A stretch of DNA of 64,000 nt from Micromonosporaceae bacterium (GCA_039649115.1 JBBWZQ010000338.1:100-64099); one strand, 5' to 3'; counted from the first letter of the stretch, positions 3,911-56,400 are shown. The notes: generated from the sequence alone by a model not told the origin. Made by a program: numbers and translations.

Positions 3911-3925
3911 GGTGTCACCATCCTA

Positions 3926-20088: not shown

Positions 20089-20163
20089 CGACTCATCCTA
20101 GCCCGGCCTGGTTTAGTATTGTGTAGCTCGTATCTCAAACGATGGCCGGAAGGGGTGATCGCG

Positions 20164-21385: not shown

Positions 21386-21480
21386 CGCTGATATCTCCAG
21401 TCTGAAGGCGCTTGATTCCGGTACAGACCTTACTACCGTTGCTGTCCCCGCGCAGAGCCTGACCCCTCCGGAGACTAGAG

Positions 21481-21520
21481 TTGCTTTAGAAACCCATGGT
21501 AATGTGAGGCCCTCACTCAA
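21481..21520 (+). promoter_or_regulatory. Copy A of the shared AT-rich promoter-like motif, upstream of the C-methyltransferase
   Basis: Sequence TTGCTTTAGAAACCCATGGTAATGTGAGGCCCTCACTCAA. It matches copy B (39276-39315) at 28 of 40 positions. The conserved blocks are TTGCTTTA, ATGGTAA, GTGAG and CCTCA. It contains the pattern TGG-TAAYGT, which resembles an extended -10 (TGn-TAnnnT). Confidence 0.45.
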
Positions 21521-24729: not shown

Positions 24730-24956
24730 GGGTGTCTCCAATCAGATACCGGCCTGCGGGGCGCGCGCGCGTCGAACGCCGCGGCCCTGGCGGCCGGGCG
24801 GAAGGTGCAGGTCGAGCCGACAACCGTTTTAGAGTTTGTGGCTGGTCTTCTGGGTCGCGCCGGCAGCCGACCACCTGGCACAACCGCCGGGCTCTCCTGA
24901 CGGAGCCGGGAGGTTCGTCTCCTGGTCAGGTCATGGGAGTCCAGTCGTGGCCACAG

Positions 24957-39335: not shown

Positions 39336-40661
39336 GTGAGTCAGCCCGCGTCCACCGTGGACATACCCGCCGCACCGGACCCCGGATCGCCGGCCTCGCT
39401 GCGCGCGGCGTCCTGGGACCGCATCCGCGAACTGTTCCCGCTGCGCCCCGACACGGTGCACATGAACTCCGGCACGGTCGGCGTGATGCCCTACCCGGTG
39501 CTCGACGAGTACACCACGGCGACCCGCGAGTGGACCGGCAGCCTCGCGAACATCTACCCGCCAAGCCTCTACCCGGACTACCGGGCCGCCATCGCCCGGG
39601 ATTTCGGCGTCGACCAGGACGAGATGGTCATCTGCCACAACGCGACCGAGGGCATGAGCCGGATCATCTCCGGGCTCGACCTCAGGGCCGGGGACGAGGC
39701 GTTGACCACGACGCACGAGTGCTTCTCGGTGCTGTCGAACCTGAACCTCGTCCACAACCGGCACGGCCTGAGCGTCCGGAAGCTGACCCTGCCCACCGGG
39801 TACGACGTGCGCGCCGAGGAGATCGTCGCGCTGTTCGAATCGGCGATCACCCCGCGTACCAGGGTGATGCTCTTCGCGGGCGTCACTCTCTTCGGCGGCG
39901 TCCGGATGCCGATGCGCGAGCTGTGCTCGCTGGCCCAACGGCACGGCATCGTCACCGTAGTCGACGGCGCGCTGCTGCCCGGGATGCTCGACTGCGACCT
40001 GCGCGCGGCCGGGGTCGACTTCCTCGTCGGTTCCGGTTCGAAGTGGCAGTGCGGCCCGCTGGGCACCGGCCTGCTGTATGTGCGCAACCGGGTGGTACCG
40101 CGGTACAACCCGCTGCCGCTGCCCACCTTCTGGCCGGTGATCTCCACCTGGTACCCGCTTGAGGGCGCGCCGCCACCGCGCTCCCACCCGGACACCGCGG
40201 CGACCAACAACATGGGCGACTACCTGCAGAGCGCGGGGAGCGCGAGCATCGCCCGGGCGGCGGCGCTCGCCAGGGCGTGCGAGGTCTGGGACGGGATCGG
40301 CCGGCAGCGCATCGAACGGTACGTCCTGGACCTCGGCCAGTACACCAAACAGCGCATCGCGGAGCGCTTCGGCCCGGCGGCGCTGTACTCGCCGGCCGCC
40401 GACGATCGCCTGAACTCGCCGGTCACCGCGTTCAACCCGTTCCGCGACCCGCGGGACGCGTACGACGGCTGGAAGTTCGAGGCCCTCGTCGACCGGCTGG
40501 AGCGGGAACACCAGATCTGGATCCGCTGGGTCGAGTTCGACGTGCCCGGCTCACCCCGCATGCACTACGCCGCGCGGCTGTGCACGCACCTGTTCAACAA
40601 CCGTGACCAGATCGACCGGGCCCTGGCCGTCATCGCCCGGCTGGCCGACGAGCTGTCCTGA
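39336..40661 (+). CDS. Aminotransferase class-V fold PLP-dependent enzyme (isopenicillin-N-epimerase / cysteine-desulfurase-like)
   Basis: 441-aa ORF starting at GTG with a GGGAGGGAG SD. Contains HMNSGTVG and the PLP-lysine block FLVGSGSKWQCGPLGTGLLYV. Confidence 0.8.
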   Translation: MSQPASTVDIPAAPDPGSPASLRAASWDRIRELFPLRPDTVHMNSGTVGVMPYPVLDEYTTATREWTGSLANIYPPSLYPDYRAAIARDFGVDQDEMVICHNATEGMSRIISGLDLRAGDEALTTTHECFSVLSNLNLVHNRHGLSVRKLTLPTGYDVRAEEIVALFESAITPRTRVMLFAGVTLFGGVRMPMRELCSLAQRHGIVTVVDGALLPGMLDCDLRAAGVDFLVGSGSKWQCGPLGTGLLYVRNRVVPRYNPLPLPTFWPVISTWYPLEGAPPPRSHPDTAATNNMGDYLQSAGSASIARAAALARACEVWDGIGRQRIERYVLDLGQYTKQRIAERFGPAALYSPAADDRLNSPVTAFNPFRDPRDAYDGWKFEALVDRLEREHQIWIRWVEFDVPGSPRMHYAARLCTHLFNNRDQIDRALAVIARLADELS

Positions 40662-40675: not shown

Positions 40676-42385
40676 ATGGAGGCTGCGCACCGCCACGGAG
40701 GCACGCTGCGGCTCTACGGCCCCGGCAGCATGGACCACCTGGACCCGGCGTGCGCCTACTACGCGCTCGGCGGCCAGGTCATCCGGCTGTTCGCCCGGCA
40801 ACTGTTCACCTACCGGGCGGTGCGGGACCTGCGCGACCGGGCGGCCATCACCCCGGTGCCCGACGTCGCCGCCGAGATCCCGACGGTGGACAACGGCGGG
40901 GTGAGTGCGGACCACGCCACCTACACGATCCGGCTGCGGCCCGGCGTGCGGTGGGACACCGGGCCTGCCCGCGAGGTGACCGCGCACGACTTCGTCCGCG
41001 GGTTCAAGCGGATGTGCAATCCGGTGACCCGAGCCGGTGCCATCACCTACTTCACCAGCACCATCCGCGGCATGGCCGGATACTGCGACGGCTACGCCCG
41101 GGCGGTACCGGGCCGCCACCCGTCGGCCGGCCAGCTCGCCGCATACCAGAACTCGCACGAGATACCGGGTGTCCGCGCCGCCGACGACCGGACCCTGGTC
41201 TTCCAGCTCATCAGGCCGGCCAACGACTTCCTCAACATCCTCGCGCTGAGCTTCGCCTCCGCGGCACCGGCGGAGTACGACGCGTTCGTGCCCGACAGCG
41301 ACGAGTTCCGCCGCGGCGTACGGTCCGACGGCCCGTACCGGATCAGCCTGTACCTGCACGGCAGGCAGATCCGGCTGGCACCCAACCCGGCATGGCGGCC
41401 GGACGCGGACCCGGTGCGCCACCAGTACCTCGACGGGGTCGAGGTGACGATGGAGCACGCGACACCGGAACAGGTGGGCCGGAAGATCGCGGCCGGTGAG
41501 GCGGACCTGTCCTGGGCCTCCCCCATCACCGAGCCGTACGAGGTCAGCCCGACCGACCCCGGAAACGACCTGGGCTACGCGCTGAACCCGTACCTCGTCT
41601 TCAACCTCCAGAGCCCGAACGCCGGCGGCGCGTTGGGGAAGCTCAAGGTACGCCAGGCGATCGCCTATGCGATCGACAAGATGGCCATCGCCGAGATATA
41701 CGACAAGCTGGAAGCGGGCACGGTGATGCGGCCGGCGCACAACGCCATCCCGCCCTGCAACGACGGTCACCGGGACTTCAACCTCTACCCCACCCCCGGC
41801 GACCGCGGCGACCCGGACACGGCCCGGCGGTTGCTCGCCGAGGCGGGGTACCCCGACGGCCTGACGCTGGTCGCCGCGCACCGCGACGTGGACGCGAACC
41901 CGGAGGTGGCCCGCTCGTACGCGGCCGATCTGGCCAGGTGCGGCATCACCGTCCGGTTCCGGGCGTTCGGGCACGCCGGGTACTACCCGTTCCTGCAGGA
42001 CCCCGCGAATGCCCGCGCCGGCCGGTGGGACATCTCGGCGCCGTCCTGGACGCCCGACTGGTACGGCAACAACGGCCGCGCCTACCTGCAGCCGATGTTC
42101 CAGACCAACGGCGCACGGGGCACCAGCAACTACGGCTGCTACAGCAATCCCGACGTCGACCGGCTCATCGAGGAGGCGCTCGCCACGACGGACCGCGCCC
42201 GGGCAACGGCGCTGTGGCACGAGGTCGACCTGCTGGTGATGCGGGATGCCGCGATCGTCCCGATCCTCGTCCACGCACCGACCATCCCGCACCTGCGCGG
42301 AGCCCGGGTCCGCAACGCGATCGCCATGCCCACTGTGGACCGCTGGTTCGATCTGTCCAACCTGTGGCTGGACTCCACCACCTGA
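40676..42385 (+). CDS. Family-5 solute-binding protein (peptide/nickel SBP_bac_5 fold) WITHOUT signal peptide or lipobox
   Basis: 569-aa ORF with an AGGAGGG SD. It begins MEAAHRHGGTLRLYGPGSMDHLDPA, which is the start of the mature SBP5 fold. No in-frame upstream ATG, GTG or TTG is available according to the track. Confidence 0.8.
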   Translation: MEAAHRHGGTLRLYGPGSMDHLDPACAYYALGGQVIRLFARQLFTYRAVRDLRDRAAITPVPDVAAEIPTVDNGGVSADHATYTIRLRPGVRWDTGPAREVTAHDFVRGFKRMCNPVTRAGAITYFTSTIRGMAGYCDGYARAVPGRHPSAGQLAAYQNSHEIPGVRAADDRTLVFQLIRPANDFLNILALSFASAAPAEYDAFVPDSDEFRRGVRSDGPYRISLYLHGRQIRLAPNPAWRPDADPVRHQYLDGVEVTMEHATPEQVGRKIAAGEADLSWASPITEPYEVSPTDPGNDLGYALNPYLVFNLQSPNAGGALGKLKVRQAIAYAIDKMAIAEIYDKLEAGTVMRPAHNAIPPCNDGHRDFNLYPTPGDRGDPDTARRLLAEAGYPDGLTLVAAHRDVDANPEVARSYAADLARCGITVRFRAFGHAGYYPFLQDPANARAGRWDISAPSWTPDWYGNNGRAYLQPMFQTNGARGTSNYGCYSNPDVDRLIEEALATTDRARATALWHEVDLLVMRDAAIVPILVHAPTIPHLRGARVRNAIAMPTVDRWFDLSNLWLDSTT

Positions 42386-42404
42386 GCACCAGGGGGAGCA
42401 CCCG

Positions 42405-44120
42405 ATGGCACCCGAAGCGCCGGCACGGGGCGGCGTCCTGACGATGGTCGGCGGCGGGGACGTCGACCACCTCGACCCCGCGCTCGCATACCACACCGTC
42501 ACCCGTGGCGTGATCCGCGCGTACACCCGGCAACTGGTCACGTACCCGTCCAGCCGGGACCGGAGCGCCACCGCCGTCATCGTCCCGGACCTGGCCACCG
42601 AGGCCGCCGGCCCGGTCGACGGCGCGGGCCGGCGGTACCGGTTCACCCTGAAGGAGGGTGTCCGGTGGGACGCGCCGTCGGGAAGCCGGCCGGTCACCGC
42701 GGCCGACGTGGTACGGGGCATCAAGCGCCTCGCCCACCCCATGGCGCCCAGTCCCGGGCTGCCGTACTACCTGAGCACCATCGAGGGCTTCGCGGAGTTC
42801 CGGGACGGGCTCGTGGGCGTGGACCGCAGCCCGGCGGCGATCGCCGGGTACATCGAGGACACCGAGGTGCCGGGAGTCCGCGCCGAGGACGGGCGCACGG
42901 TCGTGTTCACCACCTGCCACGCCATGCCCGACTTCCTCAACATCCTGGCCCTGCCGTTCGCCACCCCCGCGCCGGTGGAGTACCTGCGGTACGTCCCGGG
43001 CAGCGCGCGGATGGCACAGGCGATCATCTCCAACGGCCCGTACCGGCTGGCCCGCTACACCCCCGGTGGTGAGATCGCGCTGGAGCGCAACCCGGCCTGG
43101 GGGCCAGCGACCGACGGCGTACGCCGGTCCTATGTGGACGGTATTCTGGTGCGGGAGGGCATCGCCGAGGACAAGTGCTACCAGATGGTGATGTCGGGCG
43201 AGGCCGACATGCTCTGGGACATCCAGCCGCCGACCGGTCGGCTGGCCGGGCTGTTCGCCACCGGCGACCCCCGGCTGGAGGTCTGCCCGGCGGGCCTGCT
43301 GAGCCCGTACCTCGTCATCAACTTCCTGAGCCCCAACAACGACGGCGCCCTGCTGCGCCTCGGCGTGCGGGAGGCCCTCCAGTACGCGGTGGACAAGGCG
43401 GCCGTCGCACAGGTGTGGGGTGGACCCAGGCTCAACGACATCGCCGAGCAGATCCTGCCGCCGCTGTGCACCGCGCACCGCGAGGCGCGGCCGTACGCCA
43501 CCGCGGGCGGCGCGGGCGACCCAGCCCAGGCGCGGCGGTTGCTCGCCGAGGCGGGGTATCCCGACGGGCTCACGCTGAAGCTGGTCTTCCGTGACCGGGA
43601 CATCCACCCGGAGACCGCGCGGGCGGTGCGGGACGGCCTCGCCCGGGCCGGCATCCACGCCGAGCTGATCGCGGTGTCCATCGGCGACCTGTTCGCGCGC
43701 TACCTCGGCTCGGCCGCGGCGGCCCGGGCCGGGCGGTGGGACATCGCGCTGTCCGGCTGGGAGCCGGACTGGCACGGCAACAACGGCCGCGTCTACCTCC
43801 AGGCCCTGTTCGACAGCTCAGGCGTATCGGCGAACGACGACTGGGGCACCAACTTCGGCCACTACCGCGGCAGCCGGGCGAACGAGCTCATCAACGCGGC
43901 GCTGACCTGCGCGGACCACGCGCGCGCCGACGAGTTCTTCCGGCAGGCCGAGGCAGAGGTGATGCGGGACTGTGCGATCGTGCCCATCCTGTTCGCGCAC
44001 CAGTACTGGCTCCACTCCCGGCAGGTACGCGACTGGCTGCCCTACCCGGTGCTCAACGGGGACCTCACCAACCTCTGGCTCGACCGCGCATCCGGCAAGC
44101 GGGAAGGGGATCGGCGATGA
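42405..44120 (+). CDS. Second leaderless family-5 solute-binding protein (paralogue)
   Basis: ATG at 42405 with a GGGGGAG SD. It begins MAPEAPARGGVLTMVGGGDVDHLDPALAYH and is collinear with the upstream paralogue (shared blocks LAEAGYPDGLTL, GRWDI..S.W.PDW.GNNGR.YLQ). Confidence 0.8.
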   Translation: MAPEAPARGGVLTMVGGGDVDHLDPALAYHTVTRGVIRAYTRQLVTYPSSRDRSATAVIVPDLATEAAGPVDGAGRRYRFTLKEGVRWDAPSGSRPVTAADVVRGIKRLAHPMAPSPGLPYYLSTIEGFAEFRDGLVGVDRSPAAIAGYIEDTEVPGVRAEDGRTVVFTTCHAMPDFLNILALPFATPAPVEYLRYVPGSARMAQAIISNGPYRLARYTPGGEIALERNPAWGPATDGVRRSYVDGILVREGIAEDKCYQMVMSGEADMLWDIQPPTGRLAGLFATGDPRLEVCPAGLLSPYLVINFLSPNNDGALLRLGVREALQYAVDKAAVAQVWGGPRLNDIAEQILPPLCTAHREARPYATAGGAGDPAQARRLLAEAGYPDGLTLKLVFRDRDIHPETARAVRDGLARAGIHAELIAVSIGDLFARYLGSAAAARAGRWDIALSGWEPDWHGNNGRVYLQALFDSSGVSANDDWGTNFGHYRGSRANELINAALTCADHARADEFFRQAEAEVMRDCAIVPILFAHQYWLHSRQVRDWLPYPVLNGDLTNLWLDRASGKREGDRR

Positions 44121-44779
44121 CGGCTCGGCAGGCGGACACCGCGCTGGTGGTGCGGTCCCTTCCGGGACCAGCGACGTACATGTGCGGCCTCACCTGGGAC
44201 GGCCACCAGCTCTGGCACTCCGACCAGGAGGCGCTGCGAATCTACGCGATCGACCGGGAGACCGGCGCCGTGCGGCGGGTCATCGACTGCCCGTGGGTGC
44301 GCGCCGACCTGGCGAACCACGACGGGCTGCTGTGCCAGGTGGGCGGCCGGCCCAAGCGCATCGTGCTGGTGGACCCGGCGACCGGGCGGACCGCCGGCCA
44401 GAAACGGGTGCTGCCGGCCAGCGGCCGGCTGTGCGGCATCGAGACGGGGCCGGACGGGATGTGGATGTGCCTGCGCGCGCCGGCGGTCGTGCAGTTGCGC
44501 GACATGGAGTCGATGACGGTGCGGCGGGAGTATCCGGTGCCGGGCTCGCCCTCGGGCCTGACATACGTCGACGGGGTCGTGGTGTATTCCGAGTTCGACG
44601 GCGGCGTGGTGCGGGCCGTGGACGCCGGGACCGGCGAACCGCTCGGCACGGTACCGGTCGAGGGCCACCCGACCGGCATGACGTGGGACGGCGAGCACCT
44701 GTGGTACTGCGACTTCGCCACCCGCACGGTCAAGGCGATCCGGCTGGAGGACGTGCTGAACGGGAGGGGCCGTGACTGA
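44117..44779 (+). CDS. Beta-propeller protein, glutaminyl-cyclase-like (Glu_cyclase_2-type), cytoplasmic
   Basis: The ATG overlaps the upstream stop (ATGA). Repeated blocks GLTWDGHQLWHSD and GMTWDGEHLWYCD resemble bacterial/plant-type glutamine cyclotransferase propellers. The assignment is tentative. Confidence 0.55.
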   Translation: MTARQADTALVVRSLPGPATYMCGLTWDGHQLWHSDQEALRIYAIDRETGAVRRVIDCPWVRADLANHDGLLCQVGGRPKRIVLVDPATGRTAGQKRVLPASGRLCGIETGPDGMWMCLRAPAVVQLRDMESMTVRREYPVPGSPSGLTYVDGVVVYSEFDGGVVRAVDAGTGEPLGTVPVEGHPTGMTWDGEHLWYCDFATRTVKAIRLEDVLNGRGRD

Positions 44780-44990
44780 GCCGAGGTACCTGGACGCGAT
44801 CGAGTTCACCATGGCGGGGCAGCCGGGAAGGGTGCACGCGGCCGCGTCGTACGACGGTCAACTGTGGCTCACCACGGTCTGCGGCCTCGCCATCCAGGCG
44901 TACGTGTCGACCGGTACCCCGTGGCGCGACGTGGCGCCGGACCAGCGGTGCGCGAGGTGCGTGGCGGCGCTGGCGGTACCGGCGCGGTAG
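44772..44990 (+). CDS. Small 72-aa hypothetical protein, last gene of the operon
   Basis: The GTG start overlaps the upstream stop (GTGA), and a GGGAGGGG SD lies 5 nt upstream. Third-position GC is high. Cys pattern is C37 ... C60xxC63. No family recognised. Confidence 0.45.
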   Translation: MTEPRYLDAIEFTMAGQPGRVHAAASYDGQLWLTTVCGLAIQAYVSTGTPWRDVAPDQRCARCVAALAVPAR

Positions 44991-45004: not shown

Positions 45005-45925
45005 TCACGCCGGGTGTGTCCGCGTCGCCAGGGCGTCCCGCATCGCGGCCAGATGCGCGGGCGACGTACCGCAGCAGCCGCCCAGGATCGTGGCACCCCA
45101 CTCATCGCGGTACCGCGCGGTGAGCGCGCCGAACTGCGCGGGCGCCAGCGCGGCGGGCAGTGGACGGTCCACGTGTGTCCACAGTGGGATTCCAGAGCGG
45201 TCCTCCAGATTGGGGTACGCGCCGATCGGGCCGGTATCCGCGTCGCGCAGCCGGGCCAGACCCGCTTCGGTCGGCACGGGCGCCGTACAGTTGACCAGCA
45301 CCGCCTGCGCACCGTCGGCCCGCAGCGCGACCGCCACCCGGGCCAGGTCCTCCCCGGACAGCAGCCGGCCGCCGGACCGGCAGACGAGGCTGACCCAGGC
45401 CCGCCCACCCGCGGCCAGCACCTGCTCCAGGGCGATCCGCGCCTCGCGCGCGCAGTTCATCGTCTCGACCAGGACGACGTCGACCCCGCAGCGCACCAGT
45501 TGCCTCGCCAGCCAGCGGTGTTCGGCGCGCAGCTGCGGATCGGGCGGCACCAGGTCCGGCCGGTAGCAGTCTTCGACGGGCGCCATGGAGCCCGCGACGA
45601 GCGGGTCCGCGCCGCCGGCCGGCCGGCGGGCGCCGCGCGCGGCGTCGACGGCCAGCTCCACCATGCGCACCTGCCCGGCCGGGCCGAGGCCGGCCGCGCG
45701 CAGGGCGCGCAGGTTGCAGCGGAACGTGTTCGCCGTGACCACCTGGGCGCCGGCCGCGAGGTGCCGTTCGTGCACGCGGCGCAGCAGGCGGCGACGCCGC
45801 CGGGTCAGCAGCGCACCGCTGGTCCACCACGGCGCGGCGATCGGTACGCCCGACTCGCGCAGCCCGGTCGCCACTCCCCCGTCGAGGCGCAACGGCCCGC
45901 CGTCGGTCGCACCGGGACCGGCCAT
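45005..45925 (-). CDS. Homocysteine S-methyltransferase family protein
   Basis: Contains LDGGVATGL...AGAQVVTANTF and the C-terminal zinc-binding motif GGCCGTSPAHL. I prefer the ATG at 45925 over the TTG at 45961. Confidence 0.8.
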   Translation of the reverse strand: MAGPGATDGGPLRLDGGVATGLRESGVPIAAPWWTSGALLTRRRRRLLRRVHERHLAAGAQVVTANTFRCNLRALRAAGLGPAGQVRMVELAVDAARGARRPAGGADPLVAGSMAPVEDCYRPDLVPPDPQLRAEHRWLARQLVRCGVDVVLVETMNCAREARIALEQVLAAGGRAWVSLVCRSGGRLLSGEDLARVAVALRADGAQAVLVNCTAPVPTEAGLARLRDADTGPIGAYPNLEDRSGIPLWTHVDRPLPAALAPAQFGALTARYRDEWGATILGGCCGTSPAHLAAMRDALATRTHPA

Positions 45926-45941
45926 GAGTCGGAGCCTACGG

Positions 45942-46038
45942 CGAAACCATTGGTATCTCAAGTTGAATGAATACAGCCATTGTGATGGTTTCGAAGAAAC
46001 TGCCGGCTCGCCGGTGCCGTTATCGTGGCCAAAACCAT
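45942..46038. promoter_or_regulatory. Three copies of AAACCAT (two forming a 9-bp inverted repeat CGAAACCAT ... ATGGTTTCG) in an AT-rich divergent intergenic region
   Basis: Copies lie at 45942-45950, 45985-45993 (inverted) and 46031-46038. The region sits between the methyltransferase start and the membrane-protein / copC genes. Confidence 0.3.
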
Positions 46039-46066
46039 GTTATTCCAAGTGTTTCCGGGGGTACCT

Positions 46067-46672
46067 GTGGCTACCGCAACCTACCCGGCTACCGCGTCCG
46101 GCGGCCTGGTAAAGGCACTGAACGGCAAGCACCACTACGCGTCGCTAATGGTTTTCATGGTTGTCGTACTGGCGCACTGGGCCGAACACATCGCCCAGGC
46201 AATCCAGATCTGGGCGCTCGGCTGGCCGGCACCGGCCGCTCGCGGCCTGCTGGGCATGCCGTTCCCGTGGCTGATAAAACAGGAGTGGCTGCACTACGGG
46301 TACGCACTGCTCATGCTCATCGGGCTGGCCTTGCTGCGCCCCGGCTTCGTGGGCCGGTCCCGTACCTGGTGGACGGTCGCCCTGGGCATCCAGATCTGGC
46401 ACCACTTCGAGCACCTGCTGTTGCTGGTACAGGCCCTGACCGGCCGGTACCTGCTGGGCCGGGCGGTTCCGACGAGCATCCTGCAGATCTTCTTCCCGCG
46501 GGTCCAGTTGCACCTGTTCTACAACGCCCTGGTGTTCCTGCCGATGGCCGTCGCCATGTACTACCACCTCCGGCCGGCGCGCGCCGAGGCAAGCCAGATG
46601 TCGTGCAGTTGCCTGGCTCCCGCGCTGCGCGCGCTCCGGGCGCGGCAGGGCGAGCTTCCCGGACCGGCGTGA
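46067..46672 (+). CDS. His-rich polytopic membrane protein (hypothetical, possibly metal-handling)
   Basis: TM segments carry HWAEH and HHFEH motifs. I prefer the GTG at 46067 (GGGGG SD) because the 46025-46066 extension uses AT-ending codons (AAA, TTA, CAA, GTA). It is followed 1 nt later by copC. Confidence 0.55.
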   Translation: MATATYPATASGGLVKALNGKHHYASLMVFMVVVLAHWAEHIAQAIQIWALGWPAPAARGLLGMPFPWLIKQEWLHYGYALLMLIGLALLRPGFVGRSRTWWTVALGIQIWHHFEHLLLLVQALTGRYLLGRAVPTSILQIFFPRVQLHLFYNALVFLPMAVAMYYHLRPARAEASQMSCSCLAPALRALRARQGELPGPA

Positions 46673-46673
46673 G

Positions 46674-47333
46674 GTGGACCGGAGGCGGATCCGGGCACGC
46701 AGCGTCGGCGCCATCGCGGTCGTGCTCCTGGCGGTGAGCGTGGGCGCGCTCGTGGTCGCGACCGCCGTCAGCCCGGTACGCCTGCGGTCCGCGTCGCCCG
46801 CGAACGGGACGAGCCTGACCACGGCACCCGACCAGATCGCGCTGCGCTTCACCGCGCGCCCCGATCCCGCGCAGGTGCACATCGCGGTCGTGGACGGCGC
46901 GCGGCAGTGGATGACCGCGGGAAGGCCGGCGGTCACCGGGAACGACGTGGTGCAGCGGGTGGCCATCCATGGGAGCGGCGGATACCTGATCGGGTACCAC
47001 GTGGTGTTCGGCAACGGCCGGCAGTCCTCCGGATTCATCAGGTTCACCGTGCTGTCCGGTACGCCGGCCGCCCGGCCCGCCGCCACCGGGTACCCGTCGC
47101 CACCGCCGGCCGGCGCGCTCGGCCTGCCCGACGGAGCCGACCCCGGGGCCGCCCACAACCACACCGGCCTCGACACGGTCACCCTCGCGGTGGTCTGTCT
47201 CGACGCCGCCGCGGTCATCGTGGGGTTCGGGCTGGTCCGGCACCGGCGCCGCCGGCCGGTGGCCATCTCGAACGGCGCTATCCCGGCGCTGGACGAGGAG
47301 CAAGAAAATGTCGAGAGCGGATTGCCAGACTGA
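46674..47333 (+). CDS. copC: CopC-domain copper-binding protein with N-terminal signal/anchor and C-terminal TM segment
   Basis: SPANGTSLTTAPDQIALRFTARPDPAQVHIAVVDG...YLIGYHVVFGNGRQSSGFIRFTV is a typical CopC fold sequence. A Pro-rich linker and a C-terminal hydrophobic helix follow. Confidence 0.75.
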   Translation: MDRRRIRARSVGAIAVVLLAVSVGALVVATAVSPVRLRSASPANGTSLTTAPDQIALRFTARPDPAQVHIAVVDGARQWMTAGRPAVTGNDVVQRVAIHGSGGYLIGYHVVFGNGRQSSGFIRFTVLSGTPAARPAATGYPSPPPAGALGLPDGADPGAAHNHTGLDTVTLAVVCLDAAAVIVGFGLVRHRRRRPVAISNGAIPALDEEQENVESGLPD

Positions 47334-47369
47334 GGCGCGGCAAACCGTGCCGGATCCCGGGAGCAGACG

Positions 47370-48308
47370 ATGGCCGAGGCTGCCACATCACGTCGTCACG
47401 ACGTACGCACCGAGCGGACCGCCGCGGTCACCCGGGCGATCGAGGCCATGCGGGCCGGCCTGGTACGCAGCCTGCCCGTAGCCGACATGGCCCGCACCGG
47501 GCTGTTCAGCCCGTCGCACTTCCACCGGGTGTTCCGCGAGATCACCACGGTCACCCCGGCACGCTTCCTGGCCGCGCTGCGCATGGCCGAGGCGCGGGCG
47601 TTCCTGCTGCACTCCGAGCTGACCGTGGCCGAGGTCGGGGTGTGCGTCGGATACCAGAGCCTGACCACCTTCAGCACCCAGTTCGCCCGCCTGGTCGGCG
47701 TCGCACCGGGGCATTTCCGGCAGCTTGCCCGGGCGGTGGGCGATGCGACGGCGGGAGCGCTGTGGTCGGTGTCGCGGGCGGGCGGATCCGGGCCGCCGCG
47801 CCGGGCCGGGCCGCTGCTCGCCCTGTCCGGACTGGAGGCGGAGGGGGCCGTCGTGATCGCCGCCGTGCGCCCGGCCGGCAGCGTGTACGCGCGCCCGGAC
47901 TCGTGGGTACTGGCGGCCGGCGGGCCGCCGGTGCCGCTCGGGCCGGTACCCGGCAGCGCTCCGTGCGGCGTGTCCGCCGTCGTCGCCCGGCCGGCGACGC
48001 GGCTGACGGACGTGCTCGTCGACCAGGTGCCGGGCAGCTACCTGACGGGAGCCGCGCGGCTGCCCGAGGGCGACGGGCACCGGCCGGCCCGCGCGCCGGT
48101 ACCGGTCGCGTTGCACCCGCCCGGGCCGACGGACCTGCCGATCCTGACCGCCGCGCCGTTGGAGTGGCTGGCCCATCTGCTCCTGGCGCAGGATGCCGGC
48201 TGGCCGACCGCGAACCGGGGCCCACCCTGCCCGCGCCGCTCACCGCCGGGCCCGCTCGTTGCCGACCGGCCCGCTCAGGCGGGTGTGGCGCTGTCGGACC
48301 GCGACTGA
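47370..48308 (+). CDS. AraC-family transcriptional regulator (HTH at N-terminus)
   Basis: SPSHFHRVFREITTVTPARFLAALRMAEARAFLL...VAEVGVCVGYQSLTTFSTQFARLVGVAPGHFR matches the AraC HTH pair. The C-terminal 190 aa are Ala/Pro/Gly-rich and unassigned. Confidence 0.75.
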   Translation: MAEAATSRRHDVRTERTAAVTRAIEAMRAGLVRSLPVADMARTGLFSPSHFHRVFREITTVTPARFLAALRMAEARAFLLHSELTVAEVGVCVGYQSLTTFSTQFARLVGVAPGHFRQLARAVGDATAGALWSVSRAGGSGPPRRAGPLLALSGLEAEGAVVIAAVRPAGSVYARPDSWVLAAGGPPVPLGPVPGSAPCGVSAVVARPATRLTDVLVDQVPGSYLTGAARLPEGDGHRPARAPVPVALHPPGPTDLPILTAAPLEWLAHLLLAQDAGWPTANRGPPCPRRSPPGPLVADRPAQAGVALSDRD

Positions 48309-49302: not shown

Positions 49303-49358
49303 TCAAGGTGGTGCTGCCAGGATTTGTCCGGCGCAAACGACGAGCGGTGAGGCTACCG

Positions 49359-50330
49359 ATGACCGCACTCAAGGACCAGGTAACGAGCACCCGACCTGTT
49401 GGCTGGCGCCGGCTGTTGGCGCTGCACCCGTCCATGGTGGACTTCGCGCGGCGCGGCTTCCGTACCGGGCCGGCCGGTACCCGCGCCGCGCTGGAGGGTG
49501 CGGCCGGCGCCTTTCTGCTCGGCTTCAACGCGGAACTGGCGATGCCGGCCAGCCAGGCTCCCGAGTTGACGCACCTGCCGGAGCACCGGCGCGGGTTCGC
49601 GGCCGAGGGGGCGGCGATGGCGGCGGCCCTGCTCGACATGATGAACCCGGCCGGCGGGCGGCGGCTCGCGGCGGTACGCCAGCGGCACGCGGCCCGGTAC
49701 ACGTACCTGCTGCACGTGGGGTCCGGCTGGGCGATGGCCAAGCTGCACCGGTCACGGCTGGGCCGGTTGGGTGCCGACGAGCCGCTGCTGCGCTGGCTCG
49801 CTTATGACGGCATGGGGTTCTGCCAGGCGTTCTTCGCGAGCGAGCGGCAGTTGCGAGGATGGTACGCGCACCGGGACAGCTGCCCGCCCACCTGCGACAT
49901 CCGGTACCAGGGACTCGGGCGCAGCCTCTGGTTCCGGGAGTGTGGCACGCCCGCCGCGCTGGCCGCCCGGATCCAGCGACTGCCGCGGCGGCACCACGCC
50001 GATGCCTGGAGCGGGGTTGCGCTGGCCGCCACGTACGCGGGTGGGGTGCCCGAGGCCAGCTATGCCGAACTGCGGGAACTGGCTGGCGGGCACGGTGCCG
50101 CGATCGCGCAGGGCGCCGCGTTCGGCGCCGGCGCGTGGCAACTGTGCGGCCACGTACCCGCACACGCGCACGCCGCCGTCCGCGCGCTCGCGGGCGCCAC
50201 GGTCGACGAGGCCGCGCAATGGACCCGACAGGCGCGGCACGGGCTGGCACATCCCGGCGCGCAGGCCGACCACTTCCGGCTGTGGCGGGTCCGCATCCAG
50301 CAGCGGGCCGCCGAGCACGGCCACACCTGA
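49359..50330 (+). CDS. unbL: Enediyne biosynthesis protein UnbL / E3 (DUF1702)
   Basis: ATG at 49359 with a GGTGAGG SD, within track ORF 49308..50330. The sequence (FARRGF...LEGAAGAFLLGFN...HRRGFAAEGAAMA...LAYDGMGF...WSGVALAATYAGG) fits DUF1702 as I recall it. Its position as first gene of the cassette is also consistent. Confidence 0.8.
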   Translation: MTALKDQVTSTRPVGWRRLLALHPSMVDFARRGFRTGPAGTRAALEGAAGAFLLGFNAELAMPASQAPELTHLPEHRRGFAAEGAAMAAALLDMMNPAGGRRLAAVRQRHAARYTYLLHVGSGWAMAKLHRSRLGRLGADEPLLRWLAYDGMGFCQAFFASERQLRGWYAHRDSCPPTCDIRYQGLGRSLWFRECGTPAALAARIQRLPRRHHADAWSGVALAATYAGGVPEASYAELRELAGGHGAAIAQGAAFGAGAWQLCGHVPAHAHAAVRALAGATVDEAAQWTRQARHGLAHPGAQADHFRLWRVRIQQRAAEHGHT

Positions 50331-50351
50331 CCATACGGACGGGAGTCCAGC

Positions 50352-52265
50352 ATGTCCCTTCCTCACGCCGCGCGCGGCGCCCTGGCCGGCGCCACCGCAC
50401 TGGCGCTGTGCATCGCCGCCGGCATCGCCACCCGGCTACCCTCGGCGAGCGCCGCGCAGCGGTCCGCACTGGCCGCGCGGTTCCCGTTCACCCTGAGCTA
50501 CGCGAACGACGATCCGGCGCACGCCCGGACGGCACGGGCGGTCCAGCCCGCGCTACGCCATGTCCAGGCGTGGATATCGGCCGTCGGGGCCGGCGCGGGA
50601 CTGGCCGACTACAACGGCGACGGGCTGGCCAACGAGCGCTGCCTGGTGGATCCCCGGGACGACTCGGTCACCATCGCGCCGACTCCGGAGCAGCCGGGCC
50701 GGTTCCCCGCCTTCGCGGTCACCCCCACGGGCCTGTACTACAACGCCACCAGCACGGCGCCGATGGGGTGCCTGCCGGCGGACTTCAACGAGGACGGCTA
50801 CCCCGATCTGCTGGTCTACTTCTGGGGCCGGCCACCCGTGCTGTACCTGCGCCGGCCCGGCACCCCGCTGACCGCGGCCGGCTTCGTCGCCACCGACATC
50901 GTCGCCGACCCCACCCAGATCTGGAACAGCACCACGGCCAACGCGGTCGATCTGGATGGCGACGGCCACCTGGACCTGTTCATCGGCAACTACTTCCCGG
51001 ACGGCGCGCGGGTGCTCGACCCCAACGCCGCCGGCGACAAGCTGATGCAGATGCAGGAGTCCATGTCGGTGTCACCCAACGGCGGGCGGAACCGGATCCT
51101 GCGGTTCGCCGGTCTCTCCACAGTGGATGATGTACGGCGGCCCGGGTACGCCGACGCGTCGGCGGCGCTGACCGCGGGCGAGGCGCACTCCTGGACTCTG
51201 GCCACCGGCGCGCAGGACCTCGACGGGGACGGGCTGCCGGAGCTCTACGTCGCCAACGACTTCGGCCCGGACTACCTGCTGCGCAACGTCTCCCGGCCCG
51301 GCGACATCCGGTTCACGCCGCTGCGCGGGCAGCGCGACGCCACCGAGCCCAAGTCCAAGGTGATCGGCAACGACTCGTTCAAGAGCATGGGCGTGGCCTT
51401 CACCGACCTCAACCGGGACGGCCGGCCCGACATCCTGGTCAGCAACATCACCACACCGTTCGGGCTGGAGGAGAGCAACTTCGCCTTCGTCAGCACCGCG
51501 GCCGGCCCGCTGACCGGCGGGGTGGCCCCGTACCGGGACGAGAGCCAGCGCCTGGGCATGGCGCGCACCGGGTGGGCGTGGGACATCAAGACCGCCGACT
51601 TCGACGGCGACGGTCGGGACGAGGTGGTTCAGGCGGTCGGCTTCGTGACCGGCAACACCAACCGCTGGCCCCAACTGCAGGAGTTGGCGATGGCCAACGA
51701 CGTGATCCTGCGCTACCCGTGGGCCTGGCCCAACTTCCCGCCCGGTGCGGACATCGCCGGTCACCAGCGCGACCCGTTCCTGGTGCGGGACCGGAGTGGT
51801 CGATTCGTCGACATCGGCGCGCAGGTGGGGCTGGACAACAGCGGTACCAGCCGGGGCATCGCCATCGGCGACGTGGACCACGACGGCAGGCCGGACGTGC
51901 TGATCGCCAACCAGTGGGCCCGCTCCGTCCTGCTGCACAATGCCGGCCCGCCCCGCGCCTACCTCGGGCTGCGGCTGCTGCTGCCGGCCATCGCGCCGGA
52001 CGCACTGCCCCGGGTCGCGGTGGGCGCGTCGGTCACCGTCACCAGGCCGGACGGTACCCGGCTGATCGGGCAGCTCTTCCCCGCCAACGGCCACACCGGC
52101 GTCAACGCGCCCGAGTTGCTGTTCGGGCTCGGCACGCCGGGTGCCGCCGGTCCGGTCGCGGTGACCGTGCAGTGGCGCGACGCGGGCGGCCTGCACACCA
52201 TGTCCACCAACCTCGATGCCGGCTGGCACACGCTCGTGCTGGGCGCCGGCACCGCCACAGGCTGA
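50352..52265 (+). CDS. unbV: Enediyne biosynthesis protein UnbV / E4 (FG-GAP/VCBS repeats + ASPIC/UnbV C-terminal domain), secreted or anchored
   Basis: 637-aa ORF with an N-terminal signal/anchor. Five D.DGDG-type repeats are visible (DLDGDGHLDLF, DLDGDGLPELYV, DLNRDGRPDILV, DFDGDGRDEVV, DVDHDGRPDVLI). The C-terminal block is GASVTVTRPDG...NGHTGVNAPELLFGLG. Confidence 0.85.
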   Translation: MSLPHAARGALAGATALALCIAAGIATRLPSASAAQRSALAARFPFTLSYANDDPAHARTARAVQPALRHVQAWISAVGAGAGLADYNGDGLANERCLVDPRDDSVTIAPTPEQPGRFPAFAVTPTGLYYNATSTAPMGCLPADFNEDGYPDLLVYFWGRPPVLYLRRPGTPLTAAGFVATDIVADPTQIWNSTTANAVDLDGDGHLDLFIGNYFPDGARVLDPNAAGDKLMQMQESMSVSPNGGRNRILRFAGLSTVDDVRRPGYADASAALTAGEAHSWTLATGAQDLDGDGLPELYVANDFGPDYLLRNVSRPGDIRFTPLRGQRDATEPKSKVIGNDSFKSMGVAFTDLNRDGRPDILVSNITTPFGLEESNFAFVSTAAGPLTGGVAPYRDESQRLGMARTGWAWDIKTADFDGDGRDEVVQAVGFVTGNTNRWPQLQELAMANDVILRYPWAWPNFPPGADIAGHQRDPFLVRDRSGRFVDIGAQVGLDNSGTSRGIAIGDVDHDGRPDVLIANQWARSVLLHNAGPPRAYLGLRLLLPAIAPDALPRVAVGASVTVTRPDGTRLIGQLFPANGHTGVNAPELLFGLGTPGAAGPVAVTVQWRDAGGLHTMSTNLDAGWHTLVLGAGTATG

Positions 52266-52338
52266 CGCCGCCACCTGCGCCGCCCGCCGCGCGGGTGGCG
52301 GCGGGTGGCCGGACCGGACCCCAGGAGGCTGAACGACC

Positions 52339-53418
52339 ATGCTGCAGCGAACCGCCCCGCGAACCGCCCCGCGAACCGCCCCGCCGACCGTGCGGACAGC
52401 CGGGCCGACCGCTCCGCGAACAGTCGAGCCGACCGTCCCGCCGGGCGCCGAGCCGACCGTCCCGCCCGGCGCCCGGTCCGGCGCGGCGGACCCGCGCATC
52501 ACCGCGCTGCGCCGCTTCGCCATCTCCATCACGGTCTTCAACATCGTGGGCCATCTGTTCCTGGGCTTCGAGCAGGCCTACCTCACCCCGGTGGTCGGAC
52601 TGCTCACCGGGTACGTGGTCAGCCTCGTGCTGGAGACGGTGGACGCCTGGGCACGCGGGCGCCAGCCCCGGTACCGGGGTTCGGCGCGCACCTTCGTCAA
52701 CTTCCTGCTGCCGGCGCACATCGCCGGGCTGGCCTGCGCGATGCTGCTCTACGGCAACGAGAGCCTGTGGCCGACCGTGTTCGCGGTGACCGTGGCGGTG
52801 GCCAGCAAGTACCTCGTCAGGGTGCGGGTCGGCGGCGCGCTGCGGCACGTGCTGAACCCGAGCAACTTCGGCATCAGCGTGACGCTGCTGTGCTTCACCT
52901 GGGTCAGCATCGCCCCGCCGTACCAGTTCACCGAGTTCGTCCGCGGGCCGCTCGACTGGCTCATCCCGCTCGCCGTGCTGGCATCCGGGACGATGCTCAA
53001 CGCCAAGCTGACCCACCGGGTACCGCTGATCCTGGGCTGGGTCGGTGGCTTCGTGCTGCAGGCCGTCATCCGGGCGCTGTTCTTCCACGACTCGCTGGTG
53101 TCGATCCTGCTCGTGATGGCCGGCGTGGCGTTCATCCTCTACACGAACTACATGATCACCGACCCGGGTACCACCCCGACCGCGCCCCGCAACCAGGTGA
53201 TCTTCGGTCTGCTGACCGCCCTGACGTACGGCGCTCTGGTGGTCGCGCACATCGCGTTCGGCCTGTTCTTCGCCCTCGTCATCGTGTGCGTCGGCCGGCT
53301 GTTGTGGACCCTGGTGAGCCAGCGGCTGCGCGCCACGCGGCCGGCCGGGTCCGAACCGTCGGCGGCGGTGCGGCCGGCGCCGCAGCCGGCCGTGGCCGCC
53401 AGCGGGCAGGCGTCCTGA
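52339..53418 (+). CDS. unbU: Enediyne biosynthesis membrane protein UnbU / E5
   Basis: 359-aa polytopic ORF with an AGGAGG SD, in the conserved position between unbV and pksE. The N-terminal ~50 aa are low-complexity tandem repeats (TAPRTAPRTAPPT; EPTVPPGAEPTVPPGA), so the true start is uncertain. Confidence 0.75.
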   Translation: MLQRTAPRTAPRTAPPTVRTAGPTAPRTVEPTVPPGAEPTVPPGARSGAADPRITALRRFAISITVFNIVGHLFLGFEQAYLTPVVGLLTGYVVSLVLETVDAWARGRQPRYRGSARTFVNFLLPAHIAGLACAMLLYGNESLWPTVFAVTVAVASKYLVRVRVGGALRHVLNPSNFGISVTLLCFTWVSIAPPYQFTEFVRGPLDWLIPLAVLASGTMLNAKLTHRVPLILGWVGGFVLQAVIRALFFHDSLVSILLVMAGVAFILYTNYMITDPGTTPTAPRNQVIFGLLTALTYGALVVAHIAFGLFFALVIVCVGRLLWTLVSQRLRATRPAGSEPSAAVRPAPQPAVAASGQAS

Positions 53419-53427
53419 GGGGGCCTG

Positions 53428-56400
53428 ATGCCTGAGCAGACAGCGGACAACGACGTCGTCATCGTCGGGATGGCCTGCCGGTACCCGGACGCGGACGACC
53501 CGGGCGAGCTCTGGCAGAACGTGCTGAGCCGGCGCCGCTCGTTCCGCCGGATGCCCGCGGCCCGGCTACCCGTCTCCGAGTACGGCGGGGACGGCGCGGA
53601 CGGGACGTACGTGACCCGGGCCGCGGTGCTGGACGGCTGGACCTTCGACCGGCAGCGGTTCCGGGTACCGGGCGACACGTATCGCGCGGTGGACCTGACG
53701 CACTGGCTGGCGCTGGAGGTGGGCGCGGCGGCGCTGGCCGATGCCGGGTTCGCCGGCGGGGAAGGGCTGGACCGCACGCGTACCGGCGTCGTGCTGGGCA
53801 ACTCGCTGACCGGCGAGTTCTCGCGCGCCGCGGTACTGCGCACGCGCTGGCCGTACGTGCGCCGGACGGTGGCGGCGGCGCTGGCCGCAACCGAGCTGTC
53901 CGTGGCGGCGCAGCGGGAGCTGCTGTCCACTGTGGAGCAACACTTCAAGGCGCCGTTCCCGCGCCCGTCGGACGAGACGCTCGCCGGCGCGCTGTCCAAC
54001 ACCATCGCCGGACGCATCTGCAACTACTTCGACTTCCAGGGCACCGGGTACACCGTCGACGCGGCGTGTGCGTCGTCGCTCCTCGCGGTCGTCACCGCGG
54101 CCGAGGCGGTGGCGGCCGGCCGGCTCGACGTCGCGCTGGCCGGCGGGGTGGACCTCAGCCTGGACCCGTTCGAACTGGTCGGCTTCGCCCGGGTCGGCGC
54201 GCTCGCCGACGGTGACATGCGGGTGTACGACGCCCGGCCGACCGGGTTCCTGCCCGGCGAGGGCTGCGGCGTGCTGGTGCTGTGCCGGGCCGGGTACGCG
54301 CGGCGCAAGGGACTGCGCCGGTACGCCCGGCTGCTCGGCTGGGCCACGTCCTCGGACGGCGGCGGCGGGTTGACCCGTCCGGAGCTGGCCGGCCAGCGGC
54401 TCGCGCTGAGCCGGGCGTACCGTGGCGCCGCGCTGGACCCCAACCTGGTCGCGCTCGTCGAGGGGCACGGCACCGGTACCGAAGTCGGGGACGCCACCGA
54501 GCTGCGTACCCTCATCGAGGTACGCGAGCAGGGCGAGCGGGCGCCGGACCTGGCCCCGGCCGCACTGGGCAGCGTCAAGGGCAACATCGGCCACACCAAG
54601 GCCGCCGCCGGGGTGGCCGGGCTCATCAAGGCGACCCTCGCCCTCGACGCGGAGATCCTGCCGCCCACCACCGGCTGCGAGCAGCCGCACCCGCTGCTCG
54701 CCGCGGCGCGGCACACGCTGCGGGTGACCGGCGAGGCGCAGCCGTGGCCGGCCCGGGACCGGTACGCGGCGGTCAGCGCGATGGGGTTCGGCGGCATCAA
54801 CGCGCACGTGGTACTCGGCGGCGCCGAGCCGACGAACCGCCGGGCGCTCAGCCACCAGGAGCGGCGGCTGGCCGCGCGCCATCCCCGGCGCGAGGTCGTC
54901 GTGTGCGCCGCCGCCACCCGCGAGGAGCTGGCGGCCTCGCTGGCGACCATCCGGGACGCGGCACCGCAGATGTCGCGGGCGGAACTGGCCGACCTCGCCG
55001 CCAGCCTGGCGGGCGCGCACCGGGGCGACGCCGCGGTCCGCTTCGGCGCGGCGGTGGACGACCCGGACGACCTGGCCGCCAAGCTGGGGTACGCGCTGGA
55101 CCAGCTGGCCGCCGGCGAGCGGCGGGTACTGGAGCGCACCCGCCGGGTGTTCCTGACCGCCGGCGCGCCGCTTCGGGTCGGGCTGCTCTTCTCCGGGCAG
55201 GCGGCGCCCGTCTACGCCGGCCCGGGTGCCCTCGGCGACCTGCTCGACGACCTGCCCGAGGGGTACGCCGACCCGCTGCCCGTCCCGGCCGGCACCGTGG
55301 CCGGTACGGCGGTCGCCCAGCCGGCGATCCTGCGCGCGAGCCTGGCCGGCCTGCGCTGGCTGGACACCCTGGGCGTACGGGCCACCGAGGCCGTGGGGCA
55401 CAGCCTCGGCGAGATCACCGCGCTGGTCTGGGCCGGCGCGCTGTCCGAGGCGGAGGCGTACGCGCTGGCCCGGGCGCGCGGCGCGGCGATGGCGGCGGCC
55501 AGCGAGCAGGGCGGCATGGCCAGCCTCCACGCCGACCTGGCGACCGTCGCCGAGCTGCTGGCCGGCGGCGACGCCGTGCTCGCCGCGGACAACGCCGAGC
55601 GCCAGGCGGTGATCTCCGGTACCCCGGAGGACGTGGCGCGGGTACTGGCGGCCGCCGCGCAGCGCGGTATCGACGGCACCTGGCTACCGGTGGCACACGC
55701 GTTCCACTCGCCGCTCATGGAGCCGGCCGCCGCGCTGGTACGGGCGGCCGCCGGGCGAGCGTGCTGGCGTACCCCGTTGCGGCCCGTCGCCTCGACCGTC
55801 ACGGGTACCTGGTGGAGTCCGGACCAGGATCCGCTGGAGCTGCTGGTACGCCAGCTCACCGCACCGGTGCGCTTCCGCGAGGCGCTCGGCCTGCTCCGCG
55901 CCGAGCTGCTGATCGAGGTCGGTCCGGGGCACGTGCTGGCCGGGCTGGCCGGTGACCGGGCGGTACCGGTGGACGCCGGCGGACCCGGGGGCGAAGACCT
56001 GGCGACGGCCACCGCCGCGCTGTTCGCCGCCGGTGCCGTCGAGGATGTCCAGCCGTACTTCCGCCGGCGCTTCACCCGGCCGTTCGACCCGGCCCGGCCG
56101 CGCGCCTTCCTGGCCAACCCGTGCGAGAGCGCCGCCGGGCCGCAAGCCGTTGCCGGGGCCCAGGTCACGACGGCGGCTCGGGGCACGGCCGCGGCTCGGG
56201 GCACGGCTGCGGCACAGGGGACGCCGGGTGGCCCGCCGGAGCCCGGTCCCGTACCGCCGGCAGACCCGCTGGAGCTGGTGACCACCGAGGTGGCTGCCGC
56301 CGCCGAACTGGACCCGGCCGTGCTGCGGCCGGACACCCGGCTGCTCGCCGACCTGCACCTCACCTCGTTGCGGGTCAGCCAGCTCGCCGGCGAGGTGGCC

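Follow-up and report, generated by a model that had tools for sequence, protein, structure and literature searches.

Two solute-binding proteins of family 5, OppA1 and OppA2, are encoded as a pair inside the clavulanic acid gene cluster of Streptomyces clavuligerus (PMC8788787). Both are required for late clavulanic acid biosynthetic steps and not for nutrition, and OppA2 binds arginine and arginine-containing peptides, with N-acetylglycyl-clavaminic acid as its proposed ligand (PMC8788787, PMC7830376). One review places OppA2 'at the membrane level'. Proteins of the same family, CalT6 (Micromonospora echinospora, Q8KNE6) and CalT7 (Q8KNE2), are encoded in the calicheamicin cluster, where the letter T (transport) is a label that stems from annotation only. 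Calicheamicin is the warhead of approved antibody-drug conjugates. According to the 2016 report on the structure of CalE6, the enzymes that install sulfur into its trisulfide and thiosugar were unknown (PMC4851618). In the literature that was searched, with most subscription journals outside the search, no functional study of CalT6, CalT7 or such enediyne or cytoplasmic binding proteins was found beyond the work on OppA1/OppA2 and CalE6. Here, a 64-kb stretch of DNA (the window; GCA_039649115.1 JBBWZQ010000338.1:100-64099) on a contig of a Micromonosporaceae metagenome-assembled genome is described, in which two adjacent plus-strand genes encode the family-5 solute-binding proteins SBP1 (40676-42385) and SBP2 (42405-44120).

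SBP1 and SBP2 carry no export signal, have no importer encoded nearby, belong to the CalT6 family and have kept a ligand site of the peptide type. The tandem family-5 genes lacking an export signal had already been pointed out in an earlier reading of the DNA (hereafter the sequence-only reading), and this held up in tests of starts, motifs and hydrophobicity. The two proteins, of 569 and 571 residues, match PF00496 (SBP_bac_5) at E 1.2e-47 (163.2 bits) and E 3.2e-47 (161.8 bits), respectively, both exceeding the curated cut-off of 32.4 bits. Because the window has a G+C content of about 72%, all of its coding regions were assigned by codon-position GC, followed by a Pfam scan. The N-terminus of SBP1 reads MEAAHRHGGTLRLYGPGSMDHLDPA, and a GGAGGG Shine-Dalgarno sequence lies 6 nucleotides upstream of its ATG. 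Between this ATG and the upstream stop there are 23 in-frame codons, which encode a hydrophilic stretch that reads PDRPGPGRHRPAGRRAVLTGGST and contain no ATG, GTG or TTG. SBP1 could therefore not gain a signal peptide from any upstream start. The ATG of SBP2 has a GGGGGAG Shine-Dalgarno sequence ahead of it, and the sole longer frame of this gene begins at 42246, is rich in Arg, Ser and Pro and overlaps the end of SBP1. The codon-position GC of this extension (0.57/0.81/0.68, versus 0.72/0.52/0.94 for the gene body) is non-coding in character. The lack of an upstream start in SBP1, the nature of the SBP2 extension and the strength of both Shine-Dalgarno sequences had all been part of the sequence-only reading and were borne out.

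Motif tests revealed neither an RR-x-F-L-K-like motif nor a lipobox in SBP1 or SBP2, and the best 12-residue hydrophobicity (Kyte-Doolittle) within the first 70 residues is 1.1-1.2, versus 2.39 in a lipoprotein relative. Since any export signal is lacking from their sequences, both proteins are almost certainly cytoplasmic. A gene-call or truncation artefact was considered and ruled out, third-position GC being 0.92-0.94 in both genes. In addition, both proteins are full length in comparison with OppA2, and orthologues with the same start region are present in dozens of genomes. The two proteins are 42% identical to each other, each has its own orthologues elsewhere at 60-84% identity, and the pair is therefore old; orthologues of SBP2 (60-74% identity) adjoin SBP1-type genes in other genera as well. 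SBP1 and SBP2 belong to separate old paralogue lineages, and the duplicated pair of the sequence-only reading does not stem from a recent duplication.

No ABC (ATP-binding cassette) permease or ATPase was found in the window by full coding-region annotation with Pfam, and tblastn of the window with OppB, OppC and OppD from relatives gave no match. The only transporter in the window is a major facilitator superfamily protein (27769-29247). The absence of a linked transporter, as claimed before, was thereby confirmed for this stretch, a result that covers one contig.

The closest structural counterpart of SBP1 is OppA2. An AlphaFold2 model of SBP1 (predicted local distance difference test score 85.8, predicted template modelling score 0.87) is that of an ordinary cluster-C binding protein; it has 171 matches in the PDB at E <= 0.001, and all 50 among the matches listed are cluster-C binding proteins. 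The best fold match is OppA2 (2WOP/2WOK; template modelling score 0.77-0.79, 25-26% identity), for which a third structure, 2WOL, is also available, and OppA2 is the best PDB sequence match for both SBP1 and SBP2 (E 4.5e-41 to 4.6e-41). OppA1 and OppA2 resemble the window pair as two family-5 binding proteins embedded in a biosynthetic cluster without a cognate importer. However, at this level of identity OppA2 is not an orthologue of SBP1 or SBP2, the pathway is that of a beta-lactam and not of an enediyne, and the OppA1 and OppA2 genes are not in tandem.

The ligand site also points to a peptide-type ligand. Residues R403 and D461 of SBP1 align with R355 and D408 of Escherichia coli DppA, the two residues that we take to hold the dipeptide by its carboxylate and amino termini. 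This Arg/Asp clamp is invariant in the SBP1, CalT6, SBP2 and proteobacterial clades and in a canonical clade of transporter-linked lipoproteins that is described below. The structural comparison that the sequence-only reading had proposed thus gave a cluster-C fold for SBP1 and, in the alignment, conserved clamp residues of DppA. Positions adjacent to the clamp vary by clade, with H versus F/Y at 402, V versus R at 405 and T versus E at 459. These differences are consistent with different ligands for SBP1 and SBP2, and the earlier suggestion of two ligand specificities fits the data. The CalT7 clade has lost both clamp residues, Arg being replaced by Pro or Leu and, in part of the clade, Asp by Pro, and judged by these replacements CalT7-type paralogues probably bind a different kind of ligand, or none. 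Examples of this lineage are encoded at 4454-6136 in locus L087 and at about 7058-8740 in locus L008 (L numbers denote related loci from other genomes).

The closest described relative in sequence is CalT6, which was found in the 90%-identity cluster of one SBP1 match (P0087). CalT6 is 58% identical to SBP1 over 562 residues, i.e., over the full length, and like SBP1 it is leaderless and starts a few residues before a GGTLR motif. In a neighbour-joining tree, which was midpoint-rooted and made without support values, the SBP1 clade is sister to the CalT6 clade, and SBP2 belongs to a separate paralogue clade. SBP2 and CalT7 are 34% identical and represent different paralogue lineages, of which SBP2 keeps the Arg/Asp clamp that CalT7 has lost. 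The gene order of the calicheamicin locus is CalG2-CalR9-CalT7-(IS605 TnpB)-AT5-CalO1-CalT6-CalT5-CalT4-CalU16-CalC. It has in common with the window two family-5 binding proteins, an adjoining class-V pyridoxal phosphate (PLP)-dependent enzyme (AT5) and a DUF885/CalR9 protein. In contrast, the CalT6 and CalT7 genes stand apart, with CalT6 beside the ABC-2 exporter CalT5/CalT4, whereas the window genes are in tandem and have no ABC gene. The IS605-family TnpB gene lies between the class-V PLP gene and calT7 in calicheamicin-type Micromonospora loci (L087/L088, 6152-7438), where it interrupts an operon that is contiguous in other genera, and a similar TnpB gene is present in a locus of Actinomadura luteofluorescens (L086, 8589-9845).

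The CalR9 counterpart in the window (18817-20088, minus strand) is 58% identical to CalR9 (Q8KNE1), carries the motif HEAYPGHH and lies about 20 kb from the SBP genes. The R in the name CalR9 presumably stands for regulator. An AlphaFold2 model of this DUF885/CalR9-type protein (predicted local distance difference test score 92) matches DUF885 structures best, followed by M32 carboxypeptidase, MATCAP, ACE and M3 oligopeptidase, and the motif HExxxGHH is invariant in proteins of this type. Because of this metallopeptidase-type fold and the invariant motif, the CalR9-type protein is, on its model, probably a zinc peptidase and not a regulator, and the R label would be wrong.

How far the leaderless state extends was seen from relatives. 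The 120 best database matches to SBP1 are 55-100% identical to it and stem from numerous genera of actinomycetes and a few Alphaproteobacteria; every one of the 120 starts 3-30 residues before the GGTLR motif, without a hydrophobic leader. From the 277 relatives that a scan of species-representative genomes yielded, the best 80 loci were selected for analysis, with partner genes and enediyne genes counted within a 10-kb view around the binding-protein gene. In 59 of these 80 loci there is no hydrophobic N-terminus, no credible lipobox and no OppBCD; permease or ATPase genes of the Opp type are absent within 10 kb in 59/59. Instead of being rare, as the sequence-only reading had it, such proteins are therefore rare only in a relative sense. 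Class-V PLP enzymes, DUF885/CalR9 proteins, TldD/PmbA proteins, small beta-propellers and sulfur-related enzymes are encoded near these 59 signal-less genes. The remaining 21 loci, from Nonomuraea, Sphaerisporangium and other Streptosporangiaceae, encode lipoproteins with 50-56% identity to SBP1, whose signal reads, e.g., MASIRHLSIAAVAAASLIVTGC and whose genes are followed by those for OppD, OppC and OppB, as checked with Pfam. The correlation between signal and Opp genes over the 80 loci is perfect (Fisher p ~1e-19), a value that overstates independence because the 21 canonical loci form a single clade.

These canonical lipoproteins have nearly all invariant residues in common with SBP1, including the equivalents of DppA R355 and D408; they differ in their lipoprotein signal, in the adjoining OppD, OppC and OppB genes and in lacking enediyne-associated partner genes nearby. 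One canonical locus (L082, 9767-15633; the canonical set spans L055-L082, 21 loci) has a prolyl-oligopeptidase-family gene upstream. In the tree, at least four signal-less lineages (SBP1/CalT6, SBP2, CalT7 and a largely proteobacterial one) are seen, and the canonical clade is nested among them; the secreted canonical relatives, which offer a natural control, may be close to the ancestral state. As entire conserved clades are leaderless, a role outside transport for which these proteins were recruited is favoured, and the recruitment proposed in the sequence-only reading is supported.

Genes for the enediyne core (PKSE, E10, E3-E5) are present within the 10-kb view in 11 of the 59 signal-less loci, but in no canonical locus (0/21). 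Among the 11 is L058, from a Phyllobacteriaceae metagenome-assembled genome, which has the whole cassette next door to the binding protein along with a class-V PLP enzyme. Other signal-less binding proteins in Alphaproteobacteria were observed in Roseibium (L083) and in Bradyrhizobium japonicum (L085), where the neighbours are a class-V PLP enzyme, DUF6004, a PrmA-like methyltransferase, an ABC1 kinase, AHSA1 and DUF899. These alphaproteobacterial loci suggest that calicheamicin-like clusters exist outside actinomycetes. Another signal-less locus comes from Actinomadura verrucosospora, presumably the esperamicin producer.

Among the 80 loci, the most frequent partners are the beta-propeller (42), the class-V PLP enzyme (40) and the DUF885/CalR9 type (38), followed by DUF899 (24), two methyltransferases (23-24), the thiol methyltransferase (22), cytochrome P450 (21), glycosyltransferase (20), the SRPBCC/CalC family (17), HxlR-SCP2 (17), PmbA (16) and TldD (10). 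In the signal-less set, the class-V PLP gene stands directly upstream of the SBP gene and co-directional with it in 32 of 59 loci, and a DUF885-type gene stands directly downstream in 26 of 59. The set of Micromonospora marina includes a CalE6 orthologue, a PLP enzyme of the Cys/Met-metabolism type whose best PDB match by far is CalE6 (E 1e-144).

The window itself is an enediyne biosynthetic gene cluster. A complete core cassette of E3/UnbL, E4/UnbV, E5/UnbU, PKSE and the thioesterase E10/TEBC was recognized by domain matches at 49308-59603 on the plus strand, starting 5.2 kb downstream of the SBP pair. The domains are DUF1702 (E3), FG-GAP with UnbV_ASPIC, an NQR2_RnfD-like domain, KS-AT-ACP-KR-DH and 4HBT_2, and homologues of E3 carry the source names 'enediyne biosynthesis protein E3' or UnbL. 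An F420/NADP oxidoreductase gene follows E10 (block 49308-60393, plus strand), and this block is syntenic with loci of Rugosimonospora acidiphila (L089) and, over E3-E10, of Micromonospora yangpuensis (L090). This enediyne context, the homology to CalT6 and the precedent of OppA1/OppA2 had been missed in the sequence-only reading, whose basic observation was sound.

SBP1 and SBP2 are part of a compact operon that begins with the class-V PLP-dependent enzyme AT5 (39336-40661, plus strand; PF00266), whose stop lies 14 nucleotides before SBP1; 19 nucleotides separate SBP1 from SBP2. AT5 has its best NCBIfam match in PvdN, followed by the SufS and EgtE families, all under their cut-offs. Cysteine desulfurase was tried as an assignment and rejected, as the SufS/IscS matches are sub-threshold only, and, by sequence inference, AT5 has no Cys as far from its PLP lysine as in the catalytic loop of SufS/IscS. 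On its sequence, AT5 seems more likely to be a lyase, an epimerase or a PvdN-like enzyme. The next gene encodes a small beta-propeller of about 220 residues (44117-44779, plus strand; coding frame), the ATG of which overlaps the SBP2 stop (ATGA). It is 66% identical to a 217-residue protein of Micromonospora marina and has weak profile matches to PQQ_2/glutamine cyclotransferase and to WD-like propellers. The last gene of the operon is a small Cys-rich open reading frame (ORF) of about 72 residues (44772-44990, plus strand; third-position GC 0.91, start uncertain), which overlaps the end of the propeller gene. It has three conserved cysteines (TVCGLA, CxxC), is kept at the same position with 55-69% identity in L004/L084, L005 and L041, and could from its sequence be a zinc-ribbon or sulfur-relay protein.

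Divergent from this operon are the minus-strand genes for a TldD-type metallopeptidase (37695-39206; PmbA_TldD domains 1 and 3, NCBIfam TldD) and its PmbA-type partner (36313-37698; PmbA_TldD_3rd domain). A thiol methyltransferase of the homocysteine S-methyltransferase family (45005-45961, minus strand; PF02574 E 4.8e-49, NCBIfam under cut-off) is encoded on the other side. Further genes encode a DUF899 protein (20089-20874, plus strand; PF05988 E 2.4e-45), an AHSA1/SRPBCC protein of the family of CalC and CalU16 (20897-21520, minus strand; PF08327), a DinB/MDMPI protein (32277-33245), an EryCIII-like glycosyltransferase (35110-36225, plus strand; PF06722, PF21036) and an HxlR-SCP2 regulator recognized with Pfam (60387-61091, minus strand). 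A 592-residue protein (22963-24741, minus strand) has weak matches in its N-terminal part to Pfam SBP56 (E 1e-4) and to NCBIfam MtoX (E 7e-6, under cut-off); this SBP56/methanethiol-oxidase-like protein occurs in 5 of the 80 loci at 55-67% identity, and its sequence is suggestive of methanethiol or polysulfide chemistry.

Two well-coding plus-strand genes, 16787-18820 (677 residues) and 46025-46672 (215 residues), have no Pfam match; homologues of the 677-residue protein were observed in 4 related loci. Two minus-strand ORFs, 46145-47386 and 47388-48176, were at one point considered as cluster genes and dropped, their codon-position GC being non-genic; they gave no Pfam, NCBIfam, PDB or tblastn match. 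The genes at that place are on the plus strand and comprise the above 215-residue unknown, a CopC-domain gene (46674-47333) and an AraC gene (47370-48308). The left end of the window (1241-8795) is occupied by genes for secreted glycoside hydrolases that are unrelated to the cluster (GH28 with fibronectin-III domains, GH5-CBM2 and GH9-CBM2); together with regulator and kinase genes at 8.8-16.7 kb, they probably form its outer boundary.

With a confidence somewhat better than even, SBP1 and SBP2 are considered to be cytoplasmic, transporter-independent peptide-binding proteins of the enediyne pathway, which would hold an intermediate that bears an amino acid or a peptide for neighbouring enzymes. 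We infer this binding or escort role, which matches what has been suggested for OppA2 and N-acetylglycyl-clavaminic acid. Lipoprotein binding proteins of Opp/Dpp-type importers are the probable ancestors of the family, which would have lost the signal peptide and the permease genes while retaining the two-lobed fold and the Arg/Asp clamp, by which a short peptide or an amino acid is gripped at its free carboxylate and amino ends. Each protein may capture and shield an intermediate or donor bearing an amino acid or peptide and present it to enzymes, for which the upstream class-V PLP enzyme, the gluzincin-like DUF885/CalR9 protein, the TldD/PmbA pair and the thiol methyltransferase are candidates, and the two paralogues could serve two ligands or two steps. 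As for the chemistry, a cysteine- or thiol-peptide conjugate might be trimmed, after which C-S cleavage would install sulfur. This sulfur-installing route is speculative; it fits the lyase-like PLP, peptidase-like and thiol-methyltransferase genes and the DinB/MDMPI protein that are present. Parallels exist in the processing of glutathione in gliotoxin biosynthesis and of mycothiol in lincomycin biosynthesis.

Several points weigh against this proposal. The absence of signals was judged only by hydrophobicity and motif tests against a positive control, and sequence and gene context are what defines the CalT6-type family. Classical peptide binding is not open to every member, since the CalT7 type has lost both clamp residues. 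The product of the window cluster may contain no sulfur. A CalE6-type lyase and a second AT5 are absent from the window, and among the relatives sulfur genes vary, with the thiol methyltransferase present in just 22 of the 80 loci. Moreover, when the binding-protein set was compared with the phylogeny of the enediyne core, no SBP gene was seen within 10 kb of E3 in Rugosimonospora and M. yangpuensis, a view that the clusters exceed, and the best-named homologues of E3 come from organisms other than those of the binding-protein homologues. As these nearest E3 relatives have no SBP gene within 10 kb, the link of the SBP set to the enediyne core genes may be modular and not fixed.

A further point, the CalC-type SRPBCC gene that directly follows the SBP gene in 12 loci, fits a protective role too. 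According to this alternative, the finished enediyne or a reactive late intermediate would be sequestered in the cytoplasm until its export, in parallel with the apoproteins of nine-membered enediynes and with resistance proteins that act by binding, such as those of the CalC type. Solute-binding proteins are high-affinity ligand traps by design, and CalT6 adjoins the ABC-2 exporter genes CalT5/CalT4, beyond which lie CalU16 and CalC. On the other hand, the tightest and most common neighbours of the SBP genes are the PLP enzyme and the peptidase-like protein rather than resistance genes, and simple sequestration hardly accounts for a cluster having two or three distinct old paralogues. The conserved Arg/Asp clamp is made to fit ligands with free amino and carboxylate groups, and we know of no calicheamicin-type end products that have them. 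Self-protection is thus a minority explanation, perhaps one chance among several.

The sequence-only reading had offered enzymes, chaperones or sensors as possible recruited roles; here, binding or escort is favoured. That the binding-protein fold was turned into a catalyst (hydrolase, cyclase or transferase) acting on its bound ligand is considered quite improbable. Binding-protein folds have become enzymes in other families, and the high conservation of the present family (55-84% identity across genera) would suit such a conversion. Still, the SBP1 model is that of an ordinary cluster-C binding protein, and the signal-less clades have no residue set of their own. Because their invariant residues are the same as in the transporter-linked clade, no new catalytic site or constellation is visible, which favours a binding or escort role over that of an enzyme.

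Even less credit is given to the idea, whose exclusion the sequence-only reading had called for, that SBP1 and SBP2 are orphan parts of an importer, which would be exported in an unrecognized way or serve an ABC importer encoded elsewhere and take up a precursor or a signalling peptide. CalT6 and CalT7 were named as transport proteins, the database annotation reads 'ABC transporter substrate-binding protein', and orphan binding proteins that share permeases do exist in bacteria. Against this, no leader, Tat (twin-arginine translocation) motif or lipobox is present in the 59 loci or the 120 homologues, the in-frame stop leaves SBP1 just 23 hydrophilic upstream codons, and in the nearest secreted relatives a lipobox goes along with OppBCD genes next door. 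The ABC genes beside CalT6 are of the ABC-2 exporter type, and to our knowledge such exporters do not use binding proteins. This evidence is strong but not absolute, as it covers one contig and uses motif and hydrophobicity tests. Equally far-fetched is a role as ligand sensors that bind a pathway metabolite and modulate a regulator of the cluster (e.g., HxlR-SCP2, AraC, MerR or SARP) to control production. In its favour, several regulators are encoded nearby and an HxlR-SCP2 gene is found in 17 of 80 loci. On the other hand, no regulator gene is fused to the SBP genes or keeps a fixed place beside them, the operon partners are enzymes, and two to three paralogues per cluster would be unusual for a sensor.

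An extension of the binding or escort role to the whole gene set is a bold idea that we hold to be rather doubtful. The signal-less CalT6-family proteins would then serve as non-covalent 'carrier proteins' in the middle of a cytoplasmic machine for peptide processing, which would equip calicheamicin-type enediynes with the sulfur trigger or with another heteroatom group. The machine might consist of the PLP lyase, the DUF885/CalR9 and TldD/PmbA peptidases, the beta-propeller, the small Cys-rich protein and the thiol methyltransferase, and a thiol-peptide conjugate would be trimmed while held in the binding pocket. If true, this would give a function to genes that have been labelled 'transport' and 'regulation' since 2002, and it would address the origin of the (methyl)trisulfide and thio groups, which was open in 2016.

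The presence of CalT6-family genes in the calicheamicin cluster, annotated as 'transport', was already known, and so was a functional analogue, published for clavulanic acid biosynthesis. What appears to be new is that whole clades are signal-less, that a sister clade of Opp-linked lipoproteins exists, and that there is a tight coupling between the binding proteins, a PLP enzyme and a peptidase-like protein of the DUF885 type. The CalT6/CalT7 (transport) and CalR9 (regulation) genes belong to a widely conserved, signal-less and transporter-free set for peptide binding, cleavage and PLP chemistry, which provides a testable list of candidates for the missing calicheamicin tailoring steps. A leaderless binding protein without OppBCD beside a class-V PLP enzyme can also be used as a signature for mining related enediyne clusters. 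After OppA1/OppA2, this family would be a well-populated second example of importer binding proteins that are re-used inside the cell for biosynthesis.

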